From: Mytilus trossulus
Taxonomy: Eukaryota
Direction of reading: 5' to 3'
DNA: 64,000 nucleotides
Assembly (NCBI RefSeq): GCF_036588685.1
Contig: NC_086380.1
Location: 71,052,001-71,116,000, forward strand
In this document: positions 211-37,795 of the stretch, in pieces
Layout: the number at the start of each line of letters is the position of its first letter
Position numbering within the stretch: the first letter of the stretch is position 1
Notes under the pieces: model-generated
What the model was told of the DNA's origin: nothing
What the model saw: only the letters and a program-made list of their open reading frames with translations
Databases searched by the model: none
Program-made: the position numbers and the translations under genes

Positions 211-621
211 AACTGTTCTGAAGTAGTCTTTTCTCATTCTTGAATTTGGTCGACAACTTTTTGTCACCGTGGGTCTTTATATGAATGTTTTTCTCGTCGT
301 CACGTAACAAAATCTGATCACTTACAGAAGTAGACCGCCCCATTTCATTTTCGTTTTGTTCGTTGTTGTTCGGTATGTGAACATCGCAATCTCTCTCTTC
401 CAACAAGGTGTTAAGAATGTTCTTTATAGTTTGGGTTTCTTCAGATACTGCGTCAAACCTTTCCGTTAAATGAGCGTTTGTCTCTAAAACGACCTGCATT
501 ATCTCTGAATTATCTTTTGAAAGAACATCAACTCTCTCTTTAAGTAAAATGTTATCTTTAATAGTTGTATCTAGCTTCTGTTTCATTGTCCGTAATTCCT
601 GCTGCAAACTTTCAAATTGCT
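211..621 (-). CDS. C1qDC gene 1, exon 2 (coiled coil + linker ending EKRLLQNS); C1q exon lies left of the window
   Basis: Within ORF 191..667. Acceptor ttgcag|AG CAA TTT and donor AGT T|gtaag, both phase 1. Heptad-like EQFESLQQELRTMKQKLD. Homologous to exon 2 of genes 3, 4, 5, 7. Confidence 0.85.
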
Positions 622-711
622 CTGCAACTTGTAACAAAAAAGTAAAATATTTTACAAAAATCAACAATCAAATATATTTTATTGCTCTGTAGTATGACAA
701 ATGTTATTTAA

Positions 712-1269
712 GGTGGCTCGGGACTATTCGATTGCGCATAATTTCACGCATGAATTACAAAAGTATTTGTCGTTAATTTGATATATTTGTTTTTAAATAT
801 TTTGATTGATTAGAAATGTTAAATCATAGTAGTTATGTGACTAATAGAATATTTTTGTTATTATCCGTATCTGTTAAAGGGTCAAAATGACATTTCACCC
901 ATTTTCACCATTTACCCGCCAATATTTGGGTTGTAAGGCAAAGTATTTATTCTTCCTTATCGGTGACCTATGTTTTTTATTTGCTCATTCTTTGAAGCTA
1001 TATTTCAGCTTTTTATTTTGTAGTTTTGGACCAAGTGTCATAGAAGTTTTTTTTGATATTCCGATAAAAATATGTCAACACCTCTATTTTGCCTATCATT
1101 TCATTGAAAAATGGTCCCTTTTACATACCTGTTTAAAAGTAAAATTTTGAGGTTAAAAGGTCCGTGACCCCCTATTTGTTTTCGACCAATTTGGTTCACT
1201 TTCTGTAAAGAATAAAATAACAAAAAATACGACACTTCTGATAGATACTTTGAATAGGCCCGAGCCACC
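712..1269. mobile_element. Non-autonomous TIR element with TTAA target duplication (Kolobok-like MITE) in intron 1 of gene 1
   Basis: ttaa|GGTGGCTCGGGACTATTC ... GAATAGGCCCGAGCCACC|ttaa: 18-bp TIR with 1 mismatch, TTAA on both sides. Confidence 0.8.
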
Positions 1270-1678
1270 TTAATATCTAGTTTCTGTATATGTTGCATTG
1301 TCGTTTCATTTTGTTTCTCTTCAGTGTTCTAGATCTGTTGTTTCGTTGCTTTATTCTCAGATGTGTTTTCTTCGGAATTTTTTTTCTAACGATCCTTTTA
1401 TAGCTTGACATGGGATATGTTTTTTTCTTATTGTTGAATGCCGCACGATGACCTGAAATTGCTAATTTCTTCGTCCTTTGATCTCTGATGAGTAGTTTTT
1501 CATTAGTTTCCATACCATTTTTCTTAATTTATATTGTGCTGATAGCCTGTTTTATCTTTTTACACAAAACCTTTCTGGCTTCATAAGTTAATGTTTAGCA
1601 AATTAGACGTATTTACCTTAAGTAGGGTATCTTATAATAAAAGACCAAACTAAAGAATAACATATATGTACAACAAAC

Positions 1679-1775
1679 CTGTCAGAATATGATTGGTGTC
1701 ATCTTTTTCTGGCAAAATTGTCGATGCATAAAGGAAAGGTAGTTCCAGTAAAACGATATATATCCACAACAGCAT
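1679..1775 (-). CDS. C1qDC gene 1, exon 1 (signal peptide MLLWIYIVLLELPFLYASTILPEKDDTNHILT)
   Basis: ATG at 1775, hydrophobic N-terminus, donor ACA G|gtttgt (phase 1) splices in frame to exon 2. Homologues at 16582-16678, 22446-22531, 26989-27094 and ~37725-37795. Confidence 0.8.
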
Positions 1776-7826: not shown

Positions 7827-7980
7827 ATGGATTGTAGACTTATTACCTTTTTAGTCTTGTGTTTTGGATTATGTGCTGCAAATGATAAAGGAAATGTAAT
7901 TGAAGAGCTTAAAAGTTTGAAGGAACGCGTGAATAAATTGGAAACATTGACAGAAAATTTGCTTAATGGACATGTTAAAA
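7827..7980 (+). CDS. C1qDC gene 2, exon 1 (signal peptide + short coiled coil MDCRLITFLVLCFGLCAANDKGNVIEELKSLKERVNKLETLTENLLNGHVK)
   Basis: ATG 7827 (in-frame alternative at 7803), hydrophobic leader, donor AAA A|gtaag (phase 1). TA-rich box at ~7770-7790. Confidence 0.85.
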
Positions 7981-8473
7981 GTAAGACATTCATCTATTAT
8001 TTAATGATTAAATATTTGACCTAAAGAAATATTACCAGGAAAAAAAGAATATGCCAATCAATATCAATCTATTATTTAATGAGTATTGGTTGTATACTAA
8101 ATATTTGTCCTAAAGAAAATATACCAATCAATATCAATCGTACTTTATATGAAAATTTCTTCTTACAGTGTCATAATCCGACGTTTATTAGATATATACT
8201 ATCATTAATAGATTACATGCATAACCAACACGCATTAATAAATAACTGAAACACACAAACAAGCGCGAATACACGCAAACCTGTGTGTACTTGTTTGCCT
8301 GGTTCAAAGATAACATCTGTTTGTGTTAAAAGTGTTCTTAGTATAAAGATAAGAAGATTTGAAGATGTTCTATTTATACATTTATATATTTTATAAGGTT
8401 GAACGATTTTCAGAACTACGTTGTAATATCGATGTACAACATCAAAATACACACATGAAGGAGGATATCTGGC

Positions 8474-8541
8474 AATCTCCCATGTAAAGTTATCGGTCCG
8501 TGCTCCCTCTAGCAAGGACCGATAACTCTGTATGGGAGATT
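8474..8541. repeat. 68-nt hairpin in the gene 2 intron
   Basis: aatctcccatgtaaagttatcggtccgtgct / ccctct / agcaaggaccgataactctgtatgggagatt: 31-bp arms with 4 mismatches. Confidence 0.8.
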
Positions 8542-8559
8542 AAATTACTGTTATTGTAA

Positions 8560-9100
8560 TCTGAAAATGTTTTTTTCTAAATAATCCTCGTTAGAAATAT
8601 GAATTTACATATGATTTGGGCAAACTAAACCTACCCGTTGAACAAGGCTATATAGGTTGCATTTCTGTAAATATTAACATTGCAATTTTCCATAGGACCT
8701 CCTTTAACGGCTAAAATTGTACCACTTTTACTATGAATTTTTGAAAAAAATCTTATCCTAGAATTAAGTTCATATGCACCACAAATTTTTTCAAAGGTCA
8801 AGATATAGGGCTGTGCGGCATATTTTTTACGTTTATATGCCCTGAACTTATCAGAGTTTAAACTAACACTAATTTTCTTTCTACAGCTACCTCGAATGAA
8901 AGGTTACCACAGATTTCAATGTAAACAATATGCACGTGTTTATTAACTTGTTACATTCCCACGTTCTGTCTCTCTGATATGGAACACAGAGAGCATAACT
9001 GGGAACCAGTATGTAAACAAAATTAATTTTCTATGAATATTCAAGATTTCCCCAAAAGAGCCGTGTTTTGAGAAACAGCTGTATTTACAAAGTGAAACCT
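8560..9100 (-). mobile_element. Interspersed repeat copy in the gene 2 intron (same family as 2885-4050)
   Basis: Reverse-complement similarity to 2890-3350. Boundaries approximate. Confidence 0.5.
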
Positions 9101-9149
9101 ATAGATTTCCTTATTCGAGTGGCTGTGTATATTTTTCACATATTTTTAG

Positions 9150-9583
9150 GGCTAGATCCATCCTATCCCAATGTTGCCTTCGATGCTGTTCTGTCCAAGA
9201 ACTACGTTCATGGTGAGCAAGATTTTGTTTTGAAATTTGATCAAGTACTGACAAATGTTGGAAATGCATACAATTCTGCGACCGGAACTTTCACGGCTCC
9301 TTTTCCCGGAACTTACTTATTTAGCTGGAACATCCGGTCTGGGTATGTTTCCTCTATCGTAGCCAAATTAATGGTAAATGGTACTCCAGTGCAGGCAACT
9401 CATACTGACAGCAGTCTCAACCAATCCAATGGCTTTGAAGCCCATTCTTCTAAAACTGCTATCCTCAATCTTCAACAAAATGACAGAGTTTATATCGAAA
9501 ACTTTCCCCAGCGCGGACAAATACATAGTGATGCTAATGGACATACAGGATTTGTTGGAACCCTTCTTTTTCAAAGTGAATAA
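9150..9583 (+). CDS. C1qDC gene 2, exon 2 (globular C1q domain); spliced product 195 aa
   Basis: Acceptor tttttag|GG. C1q motifs VAFDAVL, LKFDQVLTNVGNAYN..TGTFTAPFPGTYLFSW, LNLQQNDRVYI, FVGTLL. TAA at 9583 and AATAAA at ~9634. Confidence 0.93.
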
Positions 9584-11694: not shown

Positions 11695-11930
11695 TTTGTA
11701 TGCGTCACCTAGGGGCATTATGTTGCCAGGTCTGTGCGTTCGTCCATCCGTCTGGATCCGTCTGTCCCGATTCAGGTCATATTTTTTTGGCCGAAAATGT
11801 TTTTGATGAAGTTGAAGATCAATCCATATGAAACTGAGTACACATGTTCCCTATGATATGATCATTCTCATTTTATTGATAACAATTTCACAGCCCTCTA
11901 ACTGAACATAAAAAATGATAGTGCGTTCTA
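11695..11930 (+). mobile_element. Non-autonomous repeat with tetranucleotide (ccgt/ctgt) microsatellite, resembling Helentron-associated (HINE/pearl-like) elements
   Basis: ggggcattatgtt..ggtctgtgcgttcgtccatccgtctg. A related copy lies in the opposite orientation at ~19943-20215. Confidence 0.45.
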
Positions 11931-14519
11931 AAGTCATTTCGTGTTTTAAAGTGTTTTTGTATCTTTTCATTTTGTTTCCGTCCCAAAAAACAATCCCCTT
12001 AAGAACCAGACGAATCAGTAAAATATGTATTTTTCAGTTGATAACTTCCGTCGACAGATAATTCTTGTCCATGATATGTATATTTTTGATTGTGTACGCG
12101 TACGGCTTTAACAATGAGGAAAACCCATACCGCATTGTCAGCTTTGAAAGGCCCCGAAATTACAATGTAAAACAACTCAAACAGAAAACTAACAGCCTAA
12201 TTTATGTACAAAACATGAATGAAAAACAAATATGTAACAAATAAAAAAAACGACAACCATAAACGAACTATAAAAAGCAGTTGAAAAAGCTCGACAAGGC
12301 CGTGTTTATATGTATTACATTTTGGGAGGGATGGTCTAATATGCGTACCAAACAATGGCAGTATAAATAATTCGTTGCTTGTGGTCACTATCTGGCAGAA
12401 ACTGGCAATGGCAACGTACTTGTACATATTCTTCTCGAAACTTTTGAGTAAAATAAAACCAATCCAGTTGAACGGGTATATGGAAATGTATAATACATGT
12501 ACTTTCATTGATTTCGGAAAATTCAAATGCACAAAAATAGATGATCTTTTGATCTGTTTTGTATGGTTCTAATACAACAAAATTATAAATAGTTACAGAA
12601 TTTGTAAACAGGCAATGGTTTACAGATGTATTGGTATTAATTTGCATGAGGTAGATTTCTATCCGGTCATGTTCTAATATGTTGTCCTGTTACATCACTG
12701 GACAAGTTTATGTAAGGGTTAAACCGGTTCACGCATATGATGTTCATCCCCACCACATCATGTGTGCGCGTGGTTTTCGTTGGTTCATGCCTGTCATGTT
12801 TATTTTCCATTAATTGTTTTGTTCATAAATCAGGCAGCTCCGTGGTGAAGGCCGTACATTGACCTAAAATGGTTTACTTTTTTAAAATTGTTATTAGGAT
12901 GGAGAGTTGTCTCATAGGCACTTACACCACATCTGCCTATATCTAGTTAAGTTTTATTATTTGCATTGTTAAACATTTTGTCATTTACATTTTTATATAG
13001 CTTACTATGTGATATTGGTTTTGATCATTGTCTAAGACTATATAGTGACCTATAGTTGTTTACTTCTACGACATCTTGCATATTGTGGAGACTTGTTTCA
13101 TTGGCATTCACACCATATCTTCTCTTTGTTATATGTGACTGATGGCGTTGTGACTATTTGACCACATGATAAAGGCCTAATTTAGATACCTTACTTTACT
13201 TAGTATACGTTTTTATTCCCCTGAAGTTGACACGAGATGGTTTGTAATGGTTCCAAATTATGTAATATCAAATTAATGTCACAATGATATAGATCTAGGC
13301 ATGTTTATTACAGAATGCATTAGTTAGACAAATCATGCGATGTAACACTATTGAGTTATCAGAAAAAAGTCATAAAGCAAGCTTATGTGTTATTTATTAC
13401 ACACACATGTTGTTGCATTGCTTCGACAACCACCAGTTAGTCATAAAAATATCGTGTATGAGTCATACTTGTATATAAAAAGACTACTCTCGGTCTAATT
13501 AGTTTTGGTTAATTATGATAGAAAACATATATAACCAGAAAAATGCATGCTTAAGAATTATACCTAATACCATGTCATTTTACCTGACGCTGTGTGGAAC
13601 ACTACATTCTTGAAATGCATTATGCATTACTGAATTTATATTGCATTGTAGATCATTTCAATATGTCCATGATGGTGCTTATAGCAATGTATGGAATTTA
13701 CATTTTGTAGGTAACCAATACAACTAATCAAATCTATCCCTACATCTAGAAGAATTTGACCATAGTAAAAAGTTCAACCACTAACCTACATTCATATATG
13801 ACGTATTAAAAGACTACAATCAGTAAATGAAAATAACACACATTTATAAATCCTACTATGTATCTGATCTGAAAATGAAAAGACTTGACGTTTTTTTCTA
13901 TTCATTAGAGTATAATAGAATTGAAATTTATATGTATTCTTCATAAGGAGCTTGGACTTGATTTTCACGCACCAGGAACGTTCAATCCCAAATGTTTGGA
14001 AACCAAGAATGTACAAGACCAAACCATACGAAGAGCTAAAGATCTAATGCAGATCGTCAGTATAAACCAAAATGTTCTGTTGCAAATAGGTAAATACTAT
14101 TTTTGCCATTATCATCTCTCTTTAGATTTAAAACAAATGCAATTAAGCAAAAGTGTTTCAATCCATAGATCTCGCCCCACTGCTAAATCGCCCGAAACCA
14201 AATGGTCCTATTATTTTATTTTCAAAAAAATACAATATTTTTTGGAGTTATTTGTCTCAATCGTTACTATCAAAATAGTGAAAATAGAGGACATATTTGT
14301 GAATGCAACAATTGTAACATATCTGTACATGCAGTTATCTGTGACAAAGATATTCTATAGTATTCAACTTAATCATGATGCCATCCGTTACTCTTTCAAA
14401 GTGAATACATCAATTTTACAAATAAATATTCTTGGCTCAATAGTATCAAGTATTAATTTTGAATACTAGTACGTACATATATTAAAAAAAGATAATAAGG
14501 TATTGTACCATCTTTTATC

Positions 14520-14772: not shown

Positions 14773-14790
14773 TTTATGTTTTAATTGAAA

Positions 14791-16678
14791 TATGCATCAT
14801 TTCCATTGCCTGAAGCAGGATTGCCGTATTCGTGCCTTACCTACACCATGTCACCTTTCTCAAGGACTTCTACTACTCTCTGACCTCCCATACTATATCT
14901 TTTAGAACTGCAATATACAACTGCAATCTGGTTTTCATTTTTTACTAACTTTAGGGGCAGTTCTTGGACACTTAGTTTAAATCCAGTAAACGATTAGAGA
15001 TAGACACCCTTTGTGGGGACAATAAAATTGTTATGTCTAGAATCATAAGCATTTCAAATATTAGGGACCACTGTACTGTATCACATAGGTTACTCTGTTG
15101 TAACTAAAACAATTACAAAAGTAGACAACGAAAAGTATGTATTTCACTAAATGCGCATGTAAATTTAATCGATTATTTAGAGATCAACAAATGTTAAGAG
15201 ATTTACATAAAGTAGTGCCTACAATGACGATAACCGGATGTAAGAAATAAAAATGCAGCGTGAAATCAATATCCTTGATGAATTTGGTAATGAGAGTGGT
15301 ACACAGACAACACAATTTCTATGTTAATGACAACGATAGTGTCTTTTCGTGTAATGAAAAATGTGTGAACAATACGACGTTGTGTAATTTTCATTTTAAT
15401 ACACTCGAGTTGTCATTGAACAATAGGTTCTTACTTTGACGTTATTACAAACGCCTATTGTGATACACGAATTGAAACAATTCGTCAACTTCCTAGCAGT
15501 TGTATATTTTGGTGAGTTTCTAGCTCATTTTCGTACACCTTTAAGTTTAATTGTTTAGATGTGCATTCCTGTTCTAGTAATACTCATTCAGACAACTATT
15601 CAGAAGTAGTCTTTTCTCCTTCTGGAATTTGGTCGACACCATTTTGTCACCTTGGCGCTTTTGATTAATGTCTTTCTCGTCGTCACTTAACAAAACGTGA
15701 TGACTTACAGAAGTAGACACTCCCATTTCATCTTCATTGTGATCGTTGTTATTCGATATGTTTCTATGGCAATCGCCCTCTTCCAGTATTGTGTAAAGAA
15801 TGTTCTTTCTAGTTTTGTTTTCTTCAGATACTGCATCAAACCTTTCGGTGAAATGTACCTTTGTCTCTAAAACTACCTGCATTATCTCTGATTTGTCTTT
15901 AAAAAAACATCTACTCCCTCTTTAAGTAAATTGTTTCATTAATAGTGGTATCTAGCTTTTGTTTCATTGTCCGCAGTTCTTTGTGCAAACTTTCAGTTTG
16001 CTCTGCAACTAGCCTAACAAAAGTAAAATATTTTACAAAAAAAAAAAACCCACCAAAAACAATCAAATATGTAAGTTTATTGATCTATGTTATTTTTTTA
16101 TTTCTTGATTTGTAGTTCAGGCATTTTGTATTGTCGTTTGTTTTTGATGCACTTCAGTGTGTCTATTGTTTCGTTGTTTTCATCTTATAGTTGCTGTGTT
16201 TCCCTCCGGTTTAGTTTGTAACTCGGATTAGTTTCCTCTCAATCGATTTATGACTTTTGAACAGCGGCATACTACTGTTGTCTTTATTTTTTATTTGAAT
16301 TGGTTTGAATATTTTTTCTGTTAGGACCTTTTACATCTTGACATGAGGTATGGGTTTTCCAAATTGTTCAATACCGCACGAAGACCTACAGTTGCTAATT
16401 TGATCTGTAATTGTATTTTTTTGCATTGCAAATCATTCTTACTATATGTTGTAGTTTTTCGGCTGTTGTATCTTATAGCATTTTACTCCAAATCTATTCG
16501 GTTCATTAGAAAATGTTTGGCAAATTAGACGTATCTCATAGAAAAGACATAACTAACGAATAACATATATTTACAGCAAACATGTCAGCTTATGATTGAC
16601 GTCATCATAATCTTGCAAAGTTGTCAATGCATAAAGGAAAGGTAATTCTAATAAAATGACATATATCCACAACAGCAT
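14791..16678 (-). pseudogene. C1qDC gene 3, pseudogene (sister of gene 1)
   Basis: Exon 1 is 16582-16678; the junction T|AG would create TAG. Exon 2 (15594-16002) has two 1-nt deletions and a TAG at ~15912. The C1q exon (~14791-15103) has at least 5 in-frame stops, lacks the AFSA..LGQHQ segment, and is truncated at its 3' end next to a repeat. Confidence 0.88.
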
Positions 16679-17079
16679 GATTTAAATGTAAGTCAACGAT
16701 TGAGACCTACATCTTATCATAATATTTGAATACATGCAGGTCAATATAAATGCAATGAAGATCATAGAGCAATAGATAACTTTTGCGATAGATTGCAATG
16801 ACTCTCAATCTTTCTGGTCTTCAAATCAGAATTTAAAATGACGAGCACAAGCTTCCATGAACAAGACACAATTTGATATAAAATAAAGATTTAAATCTCG
16901 GTCTATTTCTTACATACTTTTGATTTTTTTTAACTTTGTATGCTGACAGTGCCCCATCTGAAAATTTTAAATTGTTTGTTTATACATTGAACGACAAATA
17001 TATGTTAAGTTTAAAATTTTGTTTGTAGATAGATCATTTTGTGTTCTGTTAAATTGTTCCTTTTAAAATTGTTACACGA

Positions 17080-17375
17080 TGACGAATGCCGTACCCATAT
17101 TTCAACTATGTTATTCATTATGTTTATTTAGTTCACGTTTCATTGTAAATACAACGGAATTTGATGAGACTGTCATCAAAGTGAGAGGTTTAGCGCTATA
17201 AAACCGGATTTATTAACCATTTTCTACATTAGAAAATGCCTGCACTAAGTCAGGATAATGACAATTCTTGTTCATTCGTTTTTTATGTGTTTTGTCACTT
17301 GATTTTGCCATGTGATTATGGACTTCCCGATTAGATTTTCCTCTGAGTTCAGTATCTTTTGTGATTTTACTCTTT
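17080..17375 (+). mobile_element. Abundant ~300-bp interspersed repeat
   Basis: gtacccatattt..gtgagaggtttagcgctataaaacc..aagtcagga..gagttcagtat. Further copies at ~29130-29425, 40090-40380 and 47145-47460. Confidence 0.65.
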
Positions 17376-19410
17376 ATGGACCACAATTTCTTAAGTCACA
17401 CGAATTAAGCTGAAAAAAACAAAAGCCAAAAAACATACATCGCTTTTGGTGTACTGTATATAGTAAACAATTATACATTTTGAAGAATGATATTGGATAC
17501 ATTTGCCCATTATATATATGATATTGTGGGGAAGACTGCATTCTTGAATTTCAATATACTAGAACATTATTCTTGATAGATAATTTCCATGTGTCGATGA
17601 CGTTTTGAAAAGCAATCTATGGAATCACATGTTGAAGGTAACCAATACAACCAATCGAATGTATTCTATTAGTTAGTAAAATTTGACCTTCATGAAACCA
17701 CGAGAGTACTGCAATACAGTAAATGAAAACAGCAGATGATAAATTTCGTCCTCCGATATTCTTCTCTGAAAACCCCTACAGCAGTACACAAGAACCTAAA
17801 AATTTAAAAAATAATGATGTATAAGATTAAATCACTCGTTAAAAAAAGCTAGTTAGGTACGTCAGTATTCATGACGCTCTACTGCAAAATGATTAAAACT
17901 ATTCTTTCCAACCAATTTCCTATTTTAAACATTGAATTGTACATTTAAGTTATGATCATTTGAACGAGCTTTTAAAAAATGGAGTGACACCAATAAATAA
18001 AGACAAATATACCATGGTCGAAAGTAAACAGACACTCATCCTCACTAACCCTTACAGAAAGGGGAAACAACAAAACCTGCAATGAAATCAAATTATCTGG
18101 AAGGGCAAGATGTTCCTGTCCGCTTCGTAATGAGTATTTCAAATAAAATGTATAGAGACAATCATTGCCAATGGTTAACTTCTCCTTTTACTGATTTTGT
18201 TTAGTTTTTAGGAGAACGTTTTCATTGTCGTATCGTAGTTTTTTATTTTTGAAATAGAAAAGTCTTGTATCCTGCCTCATTGTTTTGTGTATATACTATA
18301 TTTCGAAACAAATGATAGCAACACAATACAAAACAATACAATTCAACTGAATGAGTAGTAAACGGAGATAGCTACATATTAGATATAAAACACAGTTTAG
18401 CACTACAAGCATGTTCGTTGATTATCTTGTCAGTGGTTGTCTTGTAATATTTCTGCACATTTTCTTCTTTGATTGTTTTTGGAATTTATTGTTGATGGTA
18501 AATTTTTGATAGTTACTGTTTGATTTCAACAAGGTTAGTATTCTTAAATTGAGACGATTTTGACCTATTCATCTTGTGTAAGCACTCAACCATTTGTGAC
18601 AATTGTATGTTGCCCTGGATTTATCGTTTTGCCTCTAGGGTCGTTAGATTGCTGTTTTGTCGAAGCATATCCCACTGCTTTTTATTTCATATCAGTCAAC
18701 TTAACAAAAAATTAATATTAGTAAATCAATGAACACTTTGTAAAATAATATTACCTTTTTGATCATTGTTGATTTATTTTTATGTAAAATGAAGTCGAGG
18801 AAAATGACAATTCCATGGAAAACGCAAATCATCGAACAGATAAACAGCAGTCAATTAAACAATTCACAGTTAAATAAAGACTGAGCAGCTAGACCAATAA
18901 AACTCGGCTGTGATATTAAAGGAATCCCCCTTACAGTTCCCTTTCCTCTGCTTCCAACTCCCTACTTCTTTACTACAAGACGAAAATATTTAAATATTTT
19001 CATGATTTGCCCCCCCCCCCCCCCAGGCATATTCCTTTTTTGATCAGTCCCCTCGACTCACGTCCCCCGTCTGACTCACGCTTGTATAATACGCATTCCA
19101 CTGTGCCCATACCATTGTTCATGCTTTCGTTTATGGCAAGTACTCAATCGGTTATAATTCTCGGCGATATCAAATTGAGAAATAAACGAATTGAGACTGC
19201 GAAAGTTGTAGCATATTTGTGGTTATCTGTGAGACATATATTCGATAAGTTACCATGTCATGATACCATCTGGAACACTTAACAAGTGAACACATATCAA
19301 ATTTACCACTATGAATAATTGGTTCAAAAACTAAAAGTATCAGTTTGAAATACAAGTACATCTATGAAAGAAAAAATAGAAGATACTTTTACAGTTTTTA
19401 TTTAATATGT

Positions 19411-19826
19411 TTATATTGCAAACAACAGTACCCCTGTAAAAGTATTATATGGACCGCTTCCATTAAGCTGAACAGGTCCGCCGAATATATGATGCCTAAC
19501 CCAAACTACATCACCTTTCTCAAGGACTTCTACTATCATCTGACTACCCATATTGCTGGTCATATGACTGCAAAAAAACAGTGCAATCTGGTTTCCGTTT
19601 TTTACCATTTCTAGGTAAACATCTTGGCTACCACTGTTCATTCCAGTGAACGATAAGAGATATATACCCTTTTTCGGGACGATGAAATGGTTATGTCTAG
19701 GATCATAAGCATTTCCAATATTAGTGATCACTGTATTGTAACCAACAGTCTGATGCTGACCGAGTTGAACGTGTCCCCCTGTCAATTGTGCGGAAAAAGC
19801 AATGTCCGTAGGTAACTGTGTTAAGA
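19411..19826 (-). CDS. C1qDC gene 4, exon 3 (intact C1q domain)
   Basis: Within ORF 19411..19875: IAFSAQLTGG, VITNIGNAYD..FIVPKKGIYLLSF, LEKGDVVWVR, NTFTGVLLF. Acceptor ttttag|TC and AATAAA at 19402-19397. Confidence 0.8.
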
Positions 19827-22531
19827 CTAAAACAGAAAAAAATATAAAGAAGTCAAAGGTACATATTACAATCAATGTAAGGCAAGTAAGTCAATATTTC
19901 ATTATTGTGTCACAATTTAAAATACATCATTATACAAAAAATAAAAACAAGAATGTGTCCATAGTACACGGATGCCCCAATAGCACTATCATTTTCTATG
20001 TTCAATTGACCGCTAAATAGGGGTATAATCTCAAATGTGGCATAACAATTAAAAGATCATAGGGAACATTTTATTAAGTTTCAAGTGGAATGAAATTCAA
20101 CTTCACCAACTTGACCACAATTTATTCTGACGTGGAACAGACGAACTGACGAACGGACGAATTCACAGTCTGGCACACAGACCAGAAAACATAATGCTCA
20201 TAAATGGAACATTAATACCTTTAAAACTATATAACAACATCCCTGCCTTTAAGACAAATGAGACACGTTAATCCTTTTCAAAATTAAATTATATATACTC
20301 AAATCACTTATCAAAACATAAACCAAATGGCGCATGCAGGATGAAAGAAATAACATTGAAGCATTTCATCAATTTATTCTTGTTAAAATAGGTAACAATA
20401 GTGGTGCTGTTAAAATTTACCGCAGTTCTTCTGTTAAAAACACCTACTGTGGATTATTTTTTTCCTGAGTATAATCGTTTGCGGTCTAAGACAACAAAAA
20501 TGTTCGTGGTTTTCCAAAGTTAGATACAAGCCAAAAGATATGTGTACTTCGTCGAACACTACAATTCGTGGTTAGTAAGTAATCACGTGTCAACGAACAT
20601 TGGTATCCAACGAATATAAATGAATCCCTAATATATCATGTTTTCATTTGGTTTTGGACAATTTGGTAACGATACGACTCGCTTACTAAACCATCATCAA
20701 CCAAGCCTAGATAATATATAATTTATTTTTCAATGACCTGATTTTTAAACAAATAAATCGAATACTCGACAACCAAATACATCAAACCGATATCACTTTT
20801 TTGTTTGTTTAAAAGTACTTTATAATTATCTTTAGAACTGAAATAAATGTATAAACACAATAACTTACTGAATATAAAGTAAAGCAGAAATATATGTTTA
20901 AAGTTTGTATTTATTCTTTATTCAATCCTTTGTGCATTCAAAAGAATTTTCAGTTATGTTGGTAACTTCTTGAGTCACCTACACTGTCCGCAAATTTTTA
21001 GCTGACGAAAGGATCAAAACTGAATTTAAAAATATTTTTACCATTTTTGGCATATGCAGAAAACACATGATATTGGTGTTATTGTGATTTTGATGTAATC
21101 TGACACATTGACCCCGCTGAATTCAACCTTGTTTCAAATTCGTTTAACAAACGTAACCAATCTTGGACGAGCCATTTATTTTATAACCCAATTTTTCTCA
21201 ATGTTTACTACGTTTTCTTTTTTAGTAGATTCAACGTCCAGGAAAGCTGTTTTTTTCTTTGTGATCGTTTAGAGAGTTTTCGTGTAAGAGATAAGTTGTA
21301 AAATAGGTACCCTCATTAATCTCAAATACTATTTAGTAAAGTGTGTAGCAAAATTTCTTTGAGTATAGTATATTAACTATTGGTAACAATTCTGTCCGTA
21401 TTTAGACACTCATTCAATTCACAATCTGAAGTTTTTATATGGATGAGTAATACCTATTGAACCGAGGTTAATCGACGGTAACGACGTAACCAAACAATCG
21501 TATTGTGACATAGGAGTTTTAGGGGAAAGTGCATGTCGAAAAATCCTCAAAAGTTGTATATTTTGAAGAGTTTTCAGCTCATTGACGTATACATTTGAAC
21601 TATGTTGCGATTTTTCTCAGATCCTTATACATAGCATTTCTTACAGTTATCCTGAATAGTAGTCTTTTCTCTTGCTGGAATTCGATCGGCAATACTTTGC
21701 CATTCTGTGTCTTTGCTTGCCTACTCTTTGTGTCGTCACTAAACAAAACCGGTCCACTTACAGAAGTAGATGCTCCCATTTCGTTTTCGTTTTGTTCGTT
21801 GTTATTCGGCACGTTCCCGTCGGTATCTCTATCTTCCAACAATGTGAATAGAATGTTCTTCATATATCTGTTTTCTTCAAATACTGTATCTAACCGTTCT
21901 TCTAAATGTGCATTTGTTTCTAAAGTCGTGTCTAACTTCTGTTTCATGGTCTGTAATTCCTGATTCAAACGTTCAAACTGCTCTGAAACCAGAAGAATAA
22001 CAGTAAATCTTTTAACAGACCAACCAAATATGTAATTTGCAATATCTGTATTATTTGGTCTTTCTTTGTTTAATTGTACTATGTATATTTGTTGCTGTTG
22101 ATCACATTTGTTTTTACATTCATTGCTTTGTACAAAAGTCAAGCCATTATTTTTCTCGTTTAAGTTGTTTTATATTTGTCGTGTCGGTTGTTTAAAGCTA
22201 CCCGTAAGGTATGGGTTTTGCTAATTATTGAATGCCGACGGTAAGTTATAGTGCTTGATTCGACGTCTTTAATTGATAAATGTCTCATTAGAAAACAAAC
22301 CATTTTTCTAACTTTGACTGACTCTTGTCGCCACAGATCTTTATCAATAAATGTACTAGCGAATGAGATTAAGATACCCTACGTAGAGTATATTATATAA
22401 AAAGAACCAAAGTAAAAATAAACCTAGATACTACATACTACAAACCTATAACGACTGTCAACTTGTGATTGGTGTCATCATTTCCTGGCAAAGATGTCGA
22501 TGCATAAAACGACATATATCCAAAACAACAT
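19411..22531 (-). pseudogene. C1qDC gene 4, disrupted (probable young pseudogene); exons 22446-22531, 21645-21982, 19411-19826
   Basis: A 20-nt deletion in exon 1 between TTTA microhomologies gives MLFWIYVVLCIDIFARK-stop. Two extra nt just before the exon 2 donor turn it to phase 0. Exon 2 and the C1q exon are otherwise open. Confidence 0.65.
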
Positions 22532-24654
22532 AGTGTATGTCTATTATGGATTGCGACCTACAATGTTCTTATCGTTAAGATAAATGCCATGCAGGTCAAT
22601 GCAAATGACACGAAGATCACTTGAACATTATATAATTCGTGAGTGTTCTGTCACCACAGAAAGTTTGTACCAGATTAGATCCAACAGAAGTCAATCAAAT
22701 AAGGCAGGTCTTCAAATATTGTCTTTATTGGACGAATAGCAAGTAAAAAGCTACAAAAAACAAGGGAAACGCATTCAAGCTCTTGTTTTAACAGAAAAAA
22801 ATCGAGTTTCACAAATTAAAGTTAACACAAGTTTAATTATGACACCTTTTGCGATCAATACACATCAAATCTAGCATAACCCTTGTACAAAAATTATATA
22901 AATTTCTCAAAAAGCTTGTAGATTTATAATATAGACAAAAGGAATATCAATTAAGATTAAAAACGGGCTTATTTCATACAAAAAATACGAATTTGTCACA
23001 TCTAAACAATTATCAAGAGCGATGGCTAAAATTATCACAAATTACTGAAATTATCAATCAAAACAACTGAACTATCTAAGGTAAGTGTTCTGCAACATAG
23101 TATTAATTAAAAAATAAAGTAACTAAGACATTCATACACTTTAGTTATCCAAAGGAACTTGCTTGCCATGTGTATACAAATATAAAAGGAGATACTCAGC
23201 AAAATGGTTCCTATGTAGCGCAGTCCAAATTTTCGGCTGAAAAAGTGCAAGAACTGTGAGACAGATTGCAATGAATTACTAAATTATAACTGATCTTCAA
23301 ATCTGAATTTGAAAAAAAAACGAAAACATTCTTCTGTAAATTTAAAAAAAATAAATATCGAATAATGATACTATTGCATAATATGGTTTATACGTCTATG
23401 AAAAACAATCCCTTCGTCCATCGAAAAAAGCAAGATAAAAATAAAACAACTAATGGAACGGCGATAGGTGTATTTCATTTTATCAACCACCATAAACTTG
23501 GGAATATAATATTGAATACACAGGTAATTAAATATGACGTTGTGTAGAAGACTGCTTTCTTGAATTGCTATATACAACACTGATTTTAGATTGCACGATA
23601 CATTAACTTCATGTGCCGAGGACGAATTTGAAAGCAATGTATGGAATTCACATTTTGTAGGTAACCAATACAACCATTCGAATGTATCCTTACATCATGA
23701 AGCATTTGACCGTAGTAAGATTATTAGAATACTGCAATACGGTAAATAAAACCATTAGATGACTAGTTTCGTGCTTTCGAAACGTTTTTCATGATTAATC
23801 TTGAACATTATCTCACAGCCAAACATTTAAAAGATAAATATGCATAAAACTAAACCAGATAAATAGCTGAAGATATCATACGGAACGCCAGTATAATATG
23901 CGATATGGGATTTGGTCATTGTTGAAGGCCATACAGTGACCTATAGTAGTTAATTTCTGTGTCATTTGGTGTCTGGCGGGGATTTGTCTCATTGACTAGC
24001 ATACCACATCTTCCTTTTTATATGACATACTCTTTTTCAAATGGATTGACACTGCTCTATGCCATCAACATCTTTTTGCTGGGGGATGGAATGTGTACAA
24101 TTCAGTGAAAATGCATGATTGCACATCAAATTGATAAGCTTTTAAAAAAGGGAGACATGAAGTCGAAGATAGATAAATTTACTATGGTCAAAATTAAACA
24201 TACAAAACGGCAGCCTTAATTCGCTCATGAGTCTTTGTGTCAAGGAAAAAATCATGGCAAAGAAAAATCAAAGTAAAGATAAACAATAGCCTACAAGACA
24301 ATCAAATAAGAACTTCAGACTTAGCAGCACATGCCATGAAATCGCTAATGACAATAAATCTTATTGAGGTGTAATCAGTTCCTACTTCAAACATGCCATC
24401 CATTGTGGTGTTTAAAGCAACTATGTATTCTTTAAAATCGAGAAAACGAGGATTGGATTGAGACTGAGATTGGTACATATCAGTGGTTATCTGTGACACA
24501 GATATTTTATAACTGTCAATAAAACCATGATGCTATTCGGAACACCTTCGAAGTTAAACTAGGAGTACTTGGTCCAATACTTAAATAAAATAGTGAAACG
24601 CTATTACATTTTTAAAACAAAAGATCATATTGTGATATAAGCTTTTATTTATGA

Positions 24655-25073
24655 TCATATTGAAAACAACAGTACCCCTGTAAAGGTGTTATATGGATCA
24701 TTTCCATTGATTTGAACAGCTCCGCTGTGTACGTGCCTAACCCACACGATATCACCTTTCTCAAGAACTTCTACTATTGTTTGGCTACCCATACTATTGG
24801 CCTTAGGACTACAATATACAATTGCAATCTCCTTTCCATTTTTCATCATTTCTAGGTATACATTTTGACCATCAACGTTCATTCCAGTGAATGACAAGAG
24901 ATAAACACCCTTTTCCGGGACGATAAAATTGTTATGGTTAGCATCATAAGCATTTCCAATATTAGTGTCCACTGTATTATATCCGACAGTTTGATGATGA
25001 CCAAGTTGGACATTCCCTCCAGTTAATTTTGCAGAGAAAGCAACCCTAGATACCGCAGGAGAATCAGTCGTTA
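24655..25073 (-). CDS. C1qDC gene 5, exon 3 (C1q domain); spliced product 313 aa
   Basis: Acceptor gttttag|TA. VAFSAKLTGG..TNIGNAYD..FIVPEKGVYLLSF..LEKGDIVWVR..NTFTGVLLF. Stop TGA is followed by AATAAA. Confidence 0.93.
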
Positions 25074-26217: not shown

Positions 26218-26634
26218 TATTCAGAAGTAGTCTTTTCTCTTTCATATATTTAGTAGACAATATGTTACCAGCCTGTATCTTTTTGTGCCTAACCTTCTCG
26301 TCCCCTCTTAACAATACGGGTACATTTACAGACGAAAATGTTACTATTTCCTTTTCGTTTTGTCCGTTACCATTCGGTACGTGTACATCGGCTTCTCTAT
26401 TTTCCAACAACGTGTTAAGAATGTTCTTCATATCTCTGTTTTCCTCAGATACGGTATCTATCCTTTCTGTTAAATGTGTATTTGTCTCTAAAACTTCCTG
26501 CATTTTCCTTTTTAGGGATTTGATGTCTTTTGATTGAACATCTGTCCTCTCTTTAGATAATTGATTTTCTTCAATAGTCGTATCTAGCTTCTGTTTTACG
26601 GTCTGTAATTCCTGGTACAAACGTTCAAACTGCT
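26218..26634 (-). CDS. C1qDC gene 5, exon 2 (coiled coil + linker ending EKRLLLN)
   Basis: Acceptor tttcag|AG, donor AAT A|gtaag. 417 nt, phase 1-1, open. Confidence 0.88.
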
Positions 26635-26988: not shown

Positions 26989-27094
26989 CTGTAACGACTG
27001 TAAACTTGTGATTGACGTCATCATTGCCTAGCACACTTGTCGATGTAGAATGGAAAGGTAGTGTTAGTAAAACGACAAATATCCACAACACCAT
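26989..27094 (-). CDS. C1qDC gene 5, exon 1 (signal peptide MVLWIFVVLLTLPFHSTSTSVLGNDDVNHKFTVVT)
   Basis: ATG at 27094, donor ACA G|gttcgt (phase 1), in frame with exon 2. Confidence 0.82.
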
Positions 27095-28669
27095 GATGTC
27101 TTTGTATTATAGATTGAGACCTAAGTTGTACATCTTATCGTCACGATTAAATATATACAGTTCAATGCAAATGTCAAGAAGATCACTATAACATTAGATA
27201 ATTCTCAAGATATATTGCAATGACCTTCATTCTCGCGTTTAAAAATTCCAGCATTGAAATTTAACGTGAAAAAGATTTCAACATTTAGATGAACAAATAA
27301 AGATAATGCAGATATTTAAGAACATAATCTCTTCATACACATTAAAAAAAGTCAACAACAAAATAGAATGTTTTAGCGCTTGAGATGTATTGCTTAAATA
27401 AAATATTATAAAGTTTATTATTGAGAAGAGAGGAAGCTATTAAACTAAGAGTTCTAAATGGTGAAGTTGAATGATTCCTTTTTTACAATCAAGAGTAGTT
27501 GTTTGACCACTAAAGAATAATTGTATCTATTTAACAGAATACGACGGATCTATTCCAATTGTTTCAACATGTGGAGCAGGATCTGTCTACCCTTCGAACT
27601 ACTGTGATCACTACTAGTTTTGTAAAATGGTATTCGTGTTGCTCTGGCTTTAGTTTTTAGTGTAATTATCTGCACTTTTTACTTGACGTGTACATATTTG
27701 ATAGGAGTTACATGAAGGATGGCATATGTGGGGCAAATATGTGTACCCGTACGTAGCACGTGAGGTTACCTTTGGTTTTGGTTGGGTCTGTCTTGCTCAG
27801 TCTTTAACGTTTCTATGTTGTGGTTTGTATATTGTACAAAGTTTTATCCTATAGACCTTTCTTTGCCATGACGTTTTCAGCTAATTTCCAACTTTTGAGT
27901 TTGAATGTCCCTCTAGTTTCCTTTGACTATTCTTTCAATGAATAATTTTTGGTATATTGAGGGTTTTTTTTATTCGCTTTTCTTTCTGTGAAATGCGCTT
28001 CATATAATGTTGATTTTTTTTTATACTTCTACTTTGTTTTGAATTTTCGCTTCTAACTGTTGCGCCACTGATCAGACTTTTCTGAACAAAACGAGTGGTC
28101 CACGTTTAAAGCTGTATGTATTCCTTCTTTCCCACAATTACTTTATACTTTTCACTTATTTCGATTAAATCAACCAATATTTTGCGTTGTCACTGATTTA
28201 ATGTACTAACGATCACGGAAATTCCTTAAACTTTAAAATGATGCTCTCAAATACCAAAACAATTGTCATAAAGAGCATCAGTTTGCTTCCTTTTCAACTA
28301 CCATTGTTTCAATCCTTCTAAATGCAGACATTGTTTATCCTCATAAGTTAAAATTGACATGTTGCTCGATAAAATAATTTGAATTTTGTTTGATTTATTT
28401 GTGTTTAGTAGTGTTGGCTAAAAGATGATTTTGTAGTAAAACTTTGCGTTGTCACATTTATGGGTAATTCTTTGTTCATGAAGCAAACAAAAACGTGTCA
28501 TGTCTTTTGTTTAATTTTCATTGTTTCGGACGTTATATGCTTATCCTAACATTTTGGTATAAGCATTTGAAAATATTATCTAGAATGCAATATATTCTGA
28601 AATGGAAAATTCAATTCGTTTCAAAAACAAAAGAAAACACAATAATAACAAGACAAGGACCTTAATGTT

Positions 28670-33288: not shown

Positions 33289-36161
33289 TTTGTTTGGTCT
33301 GGTTTAAAATCAGAACGATCTGTCATGTCATATTTTATCTTGATAGGTATGTATAAGTTCATAACTAGTAGATAAGTACATGTCCATGTTTGTGTCAAAA
33401 CCTTATGTGTATGAGAGTTATATAGTAAGTGTGTAGAAACTTGTTAATTCGAGTTAGACGACAGTGGCTGTGCTGTCTGTTAACTTCGTATAGTATTAGC
33501 ACGTTTTAATTGTAGAGGTAGCAGAAAACTTGCTTTGTTTGATTTATTTGGAGAGAGAATATTCATGGAACCAAAAGGTTATCACGCACGAATACATCTC
33601 AGTGAAATCAGCATAGCTTTACATAGGCTACAAAAGTAGTTTTGAAAACATGGTATCTCGACAAAAGAGGGGGGAAGATACCAGAGGAACATTCAAACTC
33701 ATAGATCGAAAATAAACAGCCAACGTCATGGCCAAAAAAGAAAAAAGACAAACCGACCAATGTTTACCAATATCAATACTCTAACAGACTAAACATACAA
33801 ATGTATATAAATATTAGAAGATATAAAAATCATAAAGGAATACTAAATGAAAGGACTACAATTTACTAAGTTATATAGAACAACAGCCAGAACTTTGCGC
33901 AATAATGTCTAAATCGTTTTACTATTTCAATATAATGGCCGTTTAACAGTTCGACAATGTAACGTTGAACATTGGGTACAACTTCTACCCTTTCGATGGC
34001 TTTTATATGGCACCACTTACGGTAGTTACCTATTCGGCAAGAAAATTACGACAGGTAACATTTCATGGTCAACGCAGGTATAATGATAAACAGTAAATAT
34101 ATTTCTAGTATTTAAAGTTTCCTCGCTTCACAAAGTCATTATCACATTACAATTAGAAGATTAAGTTTATATCATGAACACTCCGCAAAGAGGACAGTTT
34201 GAGCAATCAATTTGTATATCATAGTAGATTTGCCGGAACTTTTCAATTTCAACTCTATTATTTCACTAACAATAAAATTAAAATGTATTTTTTGAGTTTC
34301 ATATTCAATTGCAATGAAAACCTCCTTAGTCAAGCTAGTTAAACCATGATCAGACTTTTTTTATTTCCGAAATTCCAGGGTTGTCTTCAAATAAAATTTT
34401 AAGCATTAAAACACATTTACTTATAATCCTGGTACCTTTGATTACTATTTACTTTCCTACAGGAAAAATTTTACCCAAAAGAGTCGGACTGTCTTTAAGA
34501 TCTCTTTAATTAATTTCGATATAGTTCAAGTTGTACTCCGGTTTTTGTTCATCATTGGCTTTCAAATGTTTGAATTTGAATATTTCTAATAAAGTTTAAT
34601 TTAACAATTTAACAGAACACAAAACATCTATCTACAAACACATTCATTGATTTGTGTGTCTGACGTCAGAAAATTTTATCAACACATAGATGTGTTGTTC
34701 AATGTGCATACAAACAATTTTAAAATTTACATACGGTATGTTAGCATACAGAATTAAAATCAACCAATATAATGTATACTAACCTTAGGAAGCATTTTAC
34801 CGTAGTAAGATTATGATAATACTGTAATTGAGTAAATAAAACCAGTAGATGATTAGTTTCGTGCTTTTGAAACGTTTATTTATGATTTATATTGATCATA
34901 ATCTCTCAAACAAACATTAAAAAGCCAATGATGCATAAAACTTAACCACATAAATAGCTGAAAATATAAAAAGGAACGCCAGTATACATGACATTTGTTA
35001 TCTTTTAATCATGTGTTTCTTTGTCTAACACGTTCTCCTATTTATTTGTGTTGTAGTCCTGTAATATTATGTTGTCATTTCAATCTTATATTTAATATTG
35101 CCATAAAATTGCGAGGTTTGGTATGCCACAAAACCAGGTTCAACCCACCATTTTTATCTTAAAAGTCAGGAAAATGGCCATTGTTATATCATAGTTCGTT
35201 TCTGTGTGTGTAACATTTTAACGTTGTGTTTCCGTTGTGTCGTCTTTTTATCTTATATTTGAGTGTGAATTCACATTACTATAAGACGTTTCACGGTACT
35301 TTTCTATCCCAAATTCATGAATTCGGTTTTGATTTTTTACTTGTTATTCTCATCGGATTTTGTCTAATGCTGAGTCCGTTTCTGTGTGTGTTACATTTTA
35401 ATGTTGTTTCATTGTTCTCTTCTTGTATTTAATGCGTTTCACTCAGTTTTAGTTTGTTACCCCAATTTTGTTTTTTGTTCATAGATTTACGAGTTTTAAC
35501 AGCGGTATACTACTGTTGCCTTTATTTATACTCTATTGCAAATGGGTTGACACTACTCTATGCCATCAATATATTGTTTGGGTGATGGAATATGCACTAT
35601 TCAGTGAATATCCACGTTTGCACATATCGTTAATTTAAAAAAGCTTTTTTTTTAAATTTAAGAGAGAAATGGATAAGAAACCAAGAGTCGAACAAAATAT
35701 TAATATACTATGTTCGAAATTAAAAATACAAAACGGCAGCCTTAATTCACTTACAAATTTATACGTCCAGGATAATATCATTGCAAGGAAAACAAAAATA
35801 AAGATAAACAACAGCTTACAAAACATTCCAATGAGAACTTCGGACTAAGCAGCACATGCCATGAAATTGCTAGTGATCTGAAATGTTATTGCAGTGTACT
35901 TAGTTCCAAAATGACATCCATTGTGGGAAAATATGCATTCGATGAAAATCCAGAAAACGAGGATGGTATTGTGACTGCGATTGTTACATATCAGAAGTTA
36001 TCTGTGACGCAGATATTTTATAACAGCCACTAAAACAATGATGCTAAAAAAACTTTGAAGTGAAACTAGGAGTACTAGGTCCAATACAAAAACTAAAAAT
36101 GTAAAACGCTAGAACGTCTTATATAAAAAAAAAGATAAAAGATATAAGGTTTTATTTATGT

Positions 36162-37795
36162 TTATATTGAAAACAATAGTACCCCTGTAAAGGTGTTATA
36201 TGCATCGTTTCAATTGATTTGAGCAGGTCCGCCGGGTCCGTGTCTAACCCATACGATATCACCTTTCTCAAAGACCTCTACTATTGTCTGGCTACCCATA
36301 CTATGGTCCTTAGGACTACAAAATACAATTGCAATCTCCTCACCATTTTTTACCATTTGTAGGTATACCATTTGGCCATCAACGTTCATTCCAGTGAATG
36401 ACAAGATATAGACAGTTTTTCCGGGACGATAAAATGGTTATGGGTAGCATCATAAGCATTTCCAATATTAGTGTATTATATCCAACTGTTTGGTGCTGGC
36501 CAAGTTGGACAAGCCCTCCTTTTAATTTTACAGAGAAAGCAACCCTAGATATCGCAAAAGAATCAGTCGTTACTATAAAACAATGAAACAATGAAAAAAT
36601 GTACATTGACATAAATATCACTTCGATCATTGAAAAATAATAATTTGTTTTATTAGAAATTAGTTTGTGGTACGACGGCCAATGGATGATGAGAGGTACA
36701 CCAGAAGCATCATATATATGTTAATTACAACCCTGGTGTCATTTAGATAATTTGTCGACCAAAGATAATTGTCAACAAACGAATGTTTTGATACAGTTGT
36801 TTAAAATTAAAATCGGATTTAAAAAAAAAAAAAACTTCAAAAGCTACAATTATAGAAAAACGCATTTCGTTTCGAATTTACTTAAGTGTAATTTTCTTCT
36901 AAATAGCTGTAGGTTTGAAACGTTATATATTTACTTTTTCGCTATATTATTATCCACTTAAATTGAAATAAATTCTTACAACTATTCAGAAATCTTTCCT
37001 CCTTCAGATATTCAGTTGACAATATTTTACCACCCTGTATCTTTTTGAGCTTAACCTTCTCGTCCCCTCCAAACAAAACGGGCTCATCTACAGACGAAAA
37101 TGTTACTATTTCATTTTCGTTTTGTCCGCTATCATTCGGTACGTGTACAACGGCTTCTTTATTTTCCAACAATGTGTTAATAGTGTTCTTCTTATCTCTG
37201 TTTTCCTCAGATACTGTATCTATCCTTTCTGTTAAATACGTATTTGTCTCTAAAACTTCTTGCATTTTCCCTTTTAGAGATTTGATGTCTTTTGATTGAA
37301 CATCTATCCTCTCTTTAAATAATTGATTTTCTTCAATAGTCGTATATAGATTCTGTTTGACGGTCTGACATTACTGGTGCAAACGTTCAAACTGCTCTGA
37401 AACCAGACGAACAAAAGGATTGTCTTTTAATAATTTCAACCAAAAATGTTATACGCATTCTCGGAATTGTTTGGTCTTTAATTGGATAATAACCAGATAT
37501 TTCTTAAACATAATTTAATTTTCAAGGATAAATGGTAAGCTATAGTAATAAACCTTATGTCACTGAAGGAAAGTTTCTTTTTCTATGTTGTATTGATCGA
37601 CTGTTGTATCTTATACTATATTTTTTCTATAAACCCATTCGCCTCAAAAGTAAATATACTAACAAATGATATAAGGGTTCTGGTGAGTTTTTTTTATAGA
37701 AAATGGACCAAAGTAAAAATCAACATCCCTGGTACAATTGTCAATGCGTAATGGAAAGGTATTGTTAATAAAACGATATATATCCATAACAACAT
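36162..37795 (-). pseudogene. C1qDC gene 7, pseudogene (duplicate of gene 5)
   Basis: Exon 1 lost its 3' part and donor (~55-nt deletion near 37725). Exon 2 (36980-37396) has GAA>TAA at 37371-37373 and KRLL changed to ERFL. The C1q exon (36162-36572) has a 7-nt deletion at ~36474, a further 1-nt loss and TGA at 36210-36212. Confidence 0.9.

Follow-up and report, generated by a model that had tools for sequence, protein, structure and literature searches.

A candidate processing site between the coiled coil and the gC1q head in C1q-domain proteins of a Mytilus trossulus gene cluster and other bivalves

During the analysis of a gene cluster from Mytilus trossulus, a short motif, KRLL, was recognized between the coiled-coil stalk and the C-terminal gC1q head of the encoded C1q-domain (C1qDC) proteins. 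Judged from protein sequences, the motif is real, reaches far beyond the M. trossulus cluster, and holds across bivalve orders. It is interpreted as a proprotein-convertase site that would be cut after Lys-Arg and would free the gC1q head from its stalk, and a probability of roughly one in two is given to this reading. KRLL is thus a candidate for a bivalve-wide processing site in a well-known and very large family of immune genes; the cleavage is predicted, and it would be a variant of a known mechanism.

The C1q gene cluster and the architecture of its proteins

The window, which is the whole stretch of 64,000 nucleotides analyzed here, includes eight C1q-domain genes in tandem, of which only gene 2 is on the plus strand and the other seven are on the minus strand (Table 1). 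Exon 2 of gene 5 shows a 100% match to the 313-aa M. trossulus protein P0001 (LOC134727949). The three joined exons of gene 5 correspond to P0001, and the join of gene 6 corresponds to P0007. A single contig from run X1, which is guessed to be RNA, covers 26989-27143, 26218-26634, and 24675-25073 of gene 5. On the minus strand, 26245-26218 reads M-K-E-K-R-L-L-L-N plus one nucleotide, followed by the GTAAG donor, and the X1 contig confirms the donor of gene 5 directly after KRLLLN, at 26218. No splice joints of the cluster genes are listed for the raw-read runs X21 and X24.

Table 1. Positions of the C1q-domain genes, the exons of gene 5, and the motif in the window.
Feature	Position	Strand	End of exon 2	Motif	Remarks
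Gene 1 (P0003)	211..1775	-	EKRLLQN	KRLL, 232-221	exons 1-2 match P0003; C1q exon beyond window edge
Gene 2	7827..9583	+		VK/RLD, formed across splice junction	exons 7827-7980 and 9150-9583; 195 aa
Gene 3, pseudogene	14790..16678 (3' end approximate)	-	EKRLLLN	KRLL, 15615-15604	exon 2 frameshifted, exon 3 interrupted by stops
Gene 4, broken in this assembly	19411..22531	-	EKRLLFR	KRLL, 21668-21657	
Gene 5 exon 1, coding part (predicted signal peptide)	26989..27094	-			P0001 join; contig joint 26634/26989
Gene 5 exon 2: coiled coil, linker, KRLLLN	26218..26634	-	EKRLLLN		P0001 join and contig
Gene 5 exon 3: Ser/Thr/Pro spacer and gC1q (PF00386)	24655..25073	-			contig, Pfam, Foldseek
Gene 5 motif, K169-R170-L171-L172 of P0001	26225..26236	-		KRLL, from K at 26236	predicted cut after R170
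Gene 6 (P0007), intact, 320 aa	28670..33288	-	QKRLLQN	KRLL, 31201-31190	
Gene 7, pseudogene	36165..37795	-	EERFLN	decayed to ERFL, 36998-36987	exon 2 interrupted by a stop, exon 3 by a frameshift and a stop
Gene 8, intact, 322 aa	39621..44310	-	QKRLLQD	KRLL, 41255-41244	open frame

The exon 2 endings quoted in a preliminary description of this DNA are all present in the sequence of the window. For the ending EKRLLFR of gene 4, the KRLL is there, but the letters FR are out-of-frame text and the gene is broken: exon 1 is frameshifted and meets stops at codons 18-19, while the 338 nt of exon 2 put its GTAAG donor out of phase with exon 3. A spliced relative, 92-94% alike, was found in contigs of runs X1 and X3, and P0006, the relative from M. 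edulis, stays in frame across the junction and has KRLFLQDN. The defect of gene 4 is either an error of the assembly or a loss confined to the haplotype or the species. Pseudogene 7 has lost the motif and pseudogene 3 keeps it, as first described, but what can be drawn from this is weak, since gene 4 is broken too and two of the three pseudogenes (genes 3 and 4) thus keep KRLL.

In every one of the seven minus-strand genes, 19-24 nt separate the motif from the donor of exon 2, and the six that keep it all encode its Lys-Arg as AAA AGA. The 45-aa linker upstream of the motif aligns among genes 1, 3, 4, 5, and 7 (z 11-26) and between genes 6 and 8 (z 18). Between these two subfamilies, nine of the ten pairs show z values from -0.6 to 1.2, and the tenth reaches 2.6, a value attained by 12 of 500 shuffles; the earlier statement that the linker cannot be aligned between genes 1/3/4/5 and 6/8 is therefore borne out. 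The six copies in the window are paralogues with near-identical codons, and thus the significance of the motif rests on protein sets outside the window.

Gene 2 was described as building VKRLD across its splice junction. This is upheld by the joint 7980->9150 (GT..AG), found in contigs of X1 and X3 where it is marked 'between: not known', and by a loose end in run X3 that reads V-K-R-L across the junction. Two in-phase AG acceptors, 6 nt apart, are present at 9149-9155 (+), and the second would drop R-L of KRL. A contig of run X1 lists a joint 7981/9153 with two letters between, and use of the second acceptor was not seen.

Several other features were observed around the genes. Decayed fragments at 34111-34197 and 45524-45610 (+) resemble the end of the C1q domain of gene 2 (52% over 29 aa, with a stop), which suggests that the duplication of genes 6 and 8 carried gene 2-like relics with it. 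A non-coding tandem duplicate of ~650 bp was recognized by eye between genes 1 and 2, at ~5480-6100 and ~6200-6860. High-copy, RNA-covered repeats with inverted joints occupy introns and spacers at 11800-12950, 17000-17400, 19940-20630, and 23900-24030, and they are likely to be short transposon-derived elements.

The structure of P0001 was predicted with AlphaFold2 from an 80-row alignment, with a mean pLDDT of 83.5; a single-sequence model (mean pLDDT 39.9) was unusable. The model includes a continuous helix at residues 25-117, mostly with pLDDT above 90, which represents the coiled coil, and a gC1q fold at 186-312. PF00386 matches residues 186-310 with the e-value 1e-20, and the top ten Foldseek hits include C1QL3, C1QL1, caprin-2, and Cbln1, with target TM scores of 0.80-0.89. 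The N-terminus is hydrophobic (9-residue hydropathy 3.4) and is a putative signal peptide, and no Gly-X-Y run of the collagen type is present. The order of coiled coil, linker, and gC1q domain proposed at first is thereby supported. The pLDDT is below 50 at 124-152 and 154-179, the latter including K169-R170, and the site is predicted to lie in a disordered linker outside both coil and head; low pLDDT in a poorly aligned linker of a monomer model is weak evidence for disorder. An explanation of the motif by the heptads of the coil was rejected, as the motif lies ~50 residues beyond the helix end.

Conservation of the motif among bivalve C1q-domain proteins

Relatives were collected with phmmer from 50%-identity representatives, using a query that contained the motif (E <=0.001), and the best 150 of 2042 matches were taken. 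Kept were 45 proteins that have a single complete C1q domain preceded by more than 60 residues and that are free of collagen; the other 105 were fragments, multi-domain, or collagenous. The motif window was set at -30 to -4 before gC1q, with an equal window further upstream as the control and 2000 shuffles for each. Among these 45 proteins from the best 150 of 2042 matches, KR[LI][LMFI] is found in 17 in the motif window (shuffle mean 0.2, maximum 3) versus one in the control window (shuffle maximum 2). The simpler pattern [KR]R is found in 33 versus eight (shuffle means 9.4 and 12.2; maxima 20 and 21), so that 12 of the 45 have no dibasic pair. The set of 17, drawn from the same best 150 of 2042 matches, includes genes 1 and 6 of the window and the bowfin protein P0145, which is a coil match, beside 14 others. 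Because the motif is carried by 15 of the 36 proteins that pass a 62-bit cut on the C1q domain alone, among the matches listed, query bias does not explain the enrichment.

A motif-blind set was obtained with a search using a C1q-only alignment. It comprises the best 120 of 149 matches, all of at least 288 aa, with P0001-3 left out. Among its 15 non-fish single-domain proteins, 11 have a dibasic pair, seven have R-X-[KR]-R, and two have KRLL, while none of its 64 fish single-domain proteins has a dibasic pair (best 120 of 149). Close paralogues are present in both sets, and they dominate the fish control.

The variants differ among bivalve lineages. Among 30 chosen proteins and the labels of the motif-blind set, KRLL-type sites were found in four species of Mytilus, Crassostrea virginica, Saccostrea, and Mercenaria; KRV and KRQ sites in three scallops, Mercenaria, and Mytilus; KRFV or RRFV in Mya and Dreissena; and RIRR in Mercenaria and Ruditapes. 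In a quick tree built from 65 C1q-domain rows, a single clade of 22 rows (SH-aLRT 91, weakly supported) takes in 16 of the 20 rows with KRLL, and thus the motif counts are not independent. The other four KRLL rows are on separate branches. Six of the 22 rows of the main clade are without KRLL, indicating that the site is dispensable in some members.

The preliminary description proposed that the motif would stand out from the linker, and in the alignment it forms a conserved island. At the 14 positions upstream of it in the KRLL clade, the commonest residue occurs in at most 5 of 20-22 rows. After KR, in rows chosen for the motif, L or I follows in 22 of 22, then L in 20 and L in 13 of 22, then mostly N or G. 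The distance from KRLL to the domain is 10-19 residues in the bivalve rows among the matches listed.

Could the motif persist merely by shared descent, or by a constraint on the DNA near the splice donor? The near-constant distance to the donor, the shared codons, and the retention in two of three pseudogenes are what such an explanation would predict. However, linker residues equally close to the donor are unconserved between the subfamilies, and in gene 2 the motif runs across the splice junction, whereas in P0096 it comes shortly after the predicted signal peptide. It also recurs in proteins of less than 50% identity from several bivalve orders. This explanation is already largely refuted at the protein level and is regarded as very improbable.

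Two further groups were observed in the survey. P0184-P0188, P0193, P0198, and P0105, from Mercenaria, Ruditapes, and others, have RIRR or RLRR with A, S, or T as the next residue, at a distance of 3-6 residues ahead of gC1q. This coiled-coil clade provides the strongest candidates for true furin processing. The Mytilus proteins P0096, P0272, and P0273 have KRLL(L/V)G ~4-6 residues past the predicted signal peptide, ahead of the coiled coil, where a cut would trim only a tiny propeptide.

Candidate proteases and the fate of the motif

Basic-residue convertases are described as cutting after (K/R)-Xn-(K/R), where n is 0, 2, 4, or 6 (PMC8310232). K169-R170 of gene 5 satisfies this pattern. Its K-E-K-R fails the canonical furin motif R-X-[K/R]-R, which is present in two of the 45 proteins from the best 150 of 2042 matches; most KRLL sites have no Arg at P4 and are thus not furin-optimal. 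An aliphatic P1' residue is disfavoured by furin, and in prorenin a dibasic site before Leu can be cut. The KR-L sites would be suited to enzymes of the PC1/PC2/PC5/PACE4/PC7 type, and the venerid R-X-R-R sites to furin. Ser is reported as the commonest P1' residue of furin sites, with Val or Ala at P2' (PMC3545927), and in the venerid sites the next residue is Ser, Ala, or Thr. A conserved KR in the mussel myticalins has been predicted as a convertase site (PMC5577615).

The enzyme brought forward at first was SKI-1/S1P (MBTPS1), which would cut after R-L-L-[L/Q], or after K-R-L-L with Lys at P4, in the early Golgi; the heads would still be freed. As its specificity is summarized in PMC8310232, the consensus is R-X-aliphatic-Z, with Leu best at Z, RRLL optimal, and V, P, C, and E not accepted at Z. 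R-L-L-L followed by a small residue matches this consensus as RRLL-type substrates do. The R-L-L-L/Q of genes 1, 5, 6, and 8 agrees with it, and KRLLL fits both enzymes. S1P also accounts more simply for the leucines, which are needless for a dibasic site, and the S1P-type pattern R-X-hydrophobic is enriched in the motif window as well (31 of the 45 proteins from the best 150 of 2042 matches; shuffle maximum 27). On the other hand, S1P substrates require an Arg at P4 but no Lys ahead of it (PMC8310232), and several equivalent bivalve sites fail the consensus. Of 27 R[LI][LIMF] cases, 24 have Lys in front and only one has Arg, the opposite of the RRLL optimum, and a Lys at P5 would be unneeded. 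P0068 and P0192 have Val at Z (P1), which the consensus excludes. KRLDP of gene 2, KRVG, KRVS, and KRQD of scallops, RIRR of venerids, and variants of Mya (soft-shell clam) at the same position miss the consensus; RIRR, KRVG, KRVS, KRQ, and KRLD fit basic-residue convertases only. The retention of Lys in 24 of 27 cases, together with the equivalent sites that miss the S1P consensus, makes a basic-residue convertase likelier than S1P. S1P is thus less supported than first proposed and is an unlikely enzyme here, but it is still the main rival, given that a P1' Leu is atypical.

It is doubtful, too, that the motif goes through secretion uncut, whether as a binding or sorting signal, as a hydrophobic neck on the head trimer, or as a stretch cut occasionally outside the cell by a trypsin-like protease of host or microbe. 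Three conserved leucines exceed the needs of a dibasic site, the absence of a dibasic pair from 12 of the 45 relatives (best 150 of 2042) fits such a role, and the distance to the domain is fairly narrow. Against it, other bivalve clades have textbook furin sites at the same place without leucines, and the segment is unstructured in the monomer model.

Cleavage after KR by a basic-residue convertase, in the secretory pathway or at the cell surface, is the reading preferred here. For gene 5, a cut after R170 would convert a 35.2 kDa precursor into a 143-residue, 15.5 kDa head starting with LLLN and a stalk of ~17.5 kDa. The stalk may be a pro-domain for trimerisation or folding, or it may allow a switch from a stalked form to a free-head form. 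In that case the conserved LL(L) would not belong to an S1P site but would form the N-terminus created by the cut. Two proteins of comparable layout, Saccostrea P0112 and Pinctada P0117, seem to start with LL directly past the signal peptide, whose ends were judged by eye, and their comparison with KRLLLG of P0096 weakly suggests LL as a retained N-terminus, not as a general rule. Indeed, a general rule of LL straight after the signal peptide was rejected: a rough pattern found it in 6 of 74 proteins with a hydrophobic N-terminus, some of them wrong, and missed P0117. In P0026, P0122, P0133, and P0144, Gln follows KR and could cyclise to pyroglutamate once cut. Pyroglutamate is a common mark of processed secreted peptides.

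The proposal that the stalk is cut off to release free heads therefore stands in part. The position of the motif and its conservation across bivalve orders fit a processing site, and the cleavage itself is predicted.

Related systems and the purpose of the stalk

By their sequence, the cluster proteins are ordinary sC1q-like type II C1qDCs, which in bivalves have a signal peptide, a coiled coil, and a single C-terminal gC1q domain, and form tandem clusters with pseudogenes (PMC6835236, Gerdol et al. 2019). The interpretation differs from that account, in whose available portion the coiled coil is a collagen-like oligomerisation tail and a processing site is unmentioned (PMC6835236). The words 'cleav', 'propeptide', 'proteoly', and 'precursor' are absent from the main text of a 2023 review (PMC10672478). 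No report of a KR or KRLL processing site in bivalve C1qDCs was found in the accessible portions of the literature; surveys of Mytilus and Crassostrea in subscription journals may note the motif.

The nearest parallel concerns CTRP12 (adipolin), which furin cuts at KKXR to produce a globular isoform with an altered oligomer state and signalling (PMC12913486). In both, a convertase would remove the N-terminal part of a secreted gC1q protein. CTRP12 is a vertebrate protein whose site lies in the N-terminal domain ahead of the collagen, and its cut was shown experimentally (PMC12913486), whereas the bivalve proteins have a coiled-coil stalk and a KR-LL site beside the head, with the cut only predicted. 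The TNF superfamily offers another likeness within the same jelly-roll superfamily. EDA, BAFF, and APRIL are shed by furin, the convertase freeing a trimeric head from its stalk; they are mostly type II membrane precursors with R-X-K/R-R sites. In searches of the ESM Atlas for non-C1q proteins with stalk and motif, one lead at 0.83 was obtained, and a second search gave none.

Two mussel proteins were considered for direct evidence. Natively purified MkC1qDC of Modiolus is described as keeping its N-terminal extension and has no KR before the head (PMC8706970); it is neutral on cleavage, as the site is absent there. The gel spot of MgC1q64 at 20.5 kDa versus a predicted 24.6 kDa (PMC5302490) was set aside as uninformative, since signal removal explains part of the gap.

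In the eastern oyster, coiled-coil C1qDCs make up 55% of 476 C1qDC genes, and oligomerisation through the stalk is assumed (PMC6835236). According to the 2023 review, roles of the coiled-coil and low-complexity regions are unestablished, and most such proteins have been studied only as recombinants (PMC10672478). More tentatively, and with the odds somewhat against it, a large share of the coiled-coil C1qDC lectins, of which a bivalve genome has hundreds, may be pro-proteins; removal of the stalk would leave a free gC1q trimer with a conserved LL N-terminus as the functional lectin. The convertase site would then have been kept or re-invented in mussels, oysters, scallops, and clams as KR-LL, KR-V/Q, RR-FV, and RIRR, and the stalk would be a pro-domain or a regulated switch, not the collagen-tail analogue of proto-complement models. 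A family-wide processing site would allow a direct test of the purpose of the stalk, as it predicts masses and N-termini in haemolymph and mucus. If it is true, assays with full-length recombinants may have used the precursor form.
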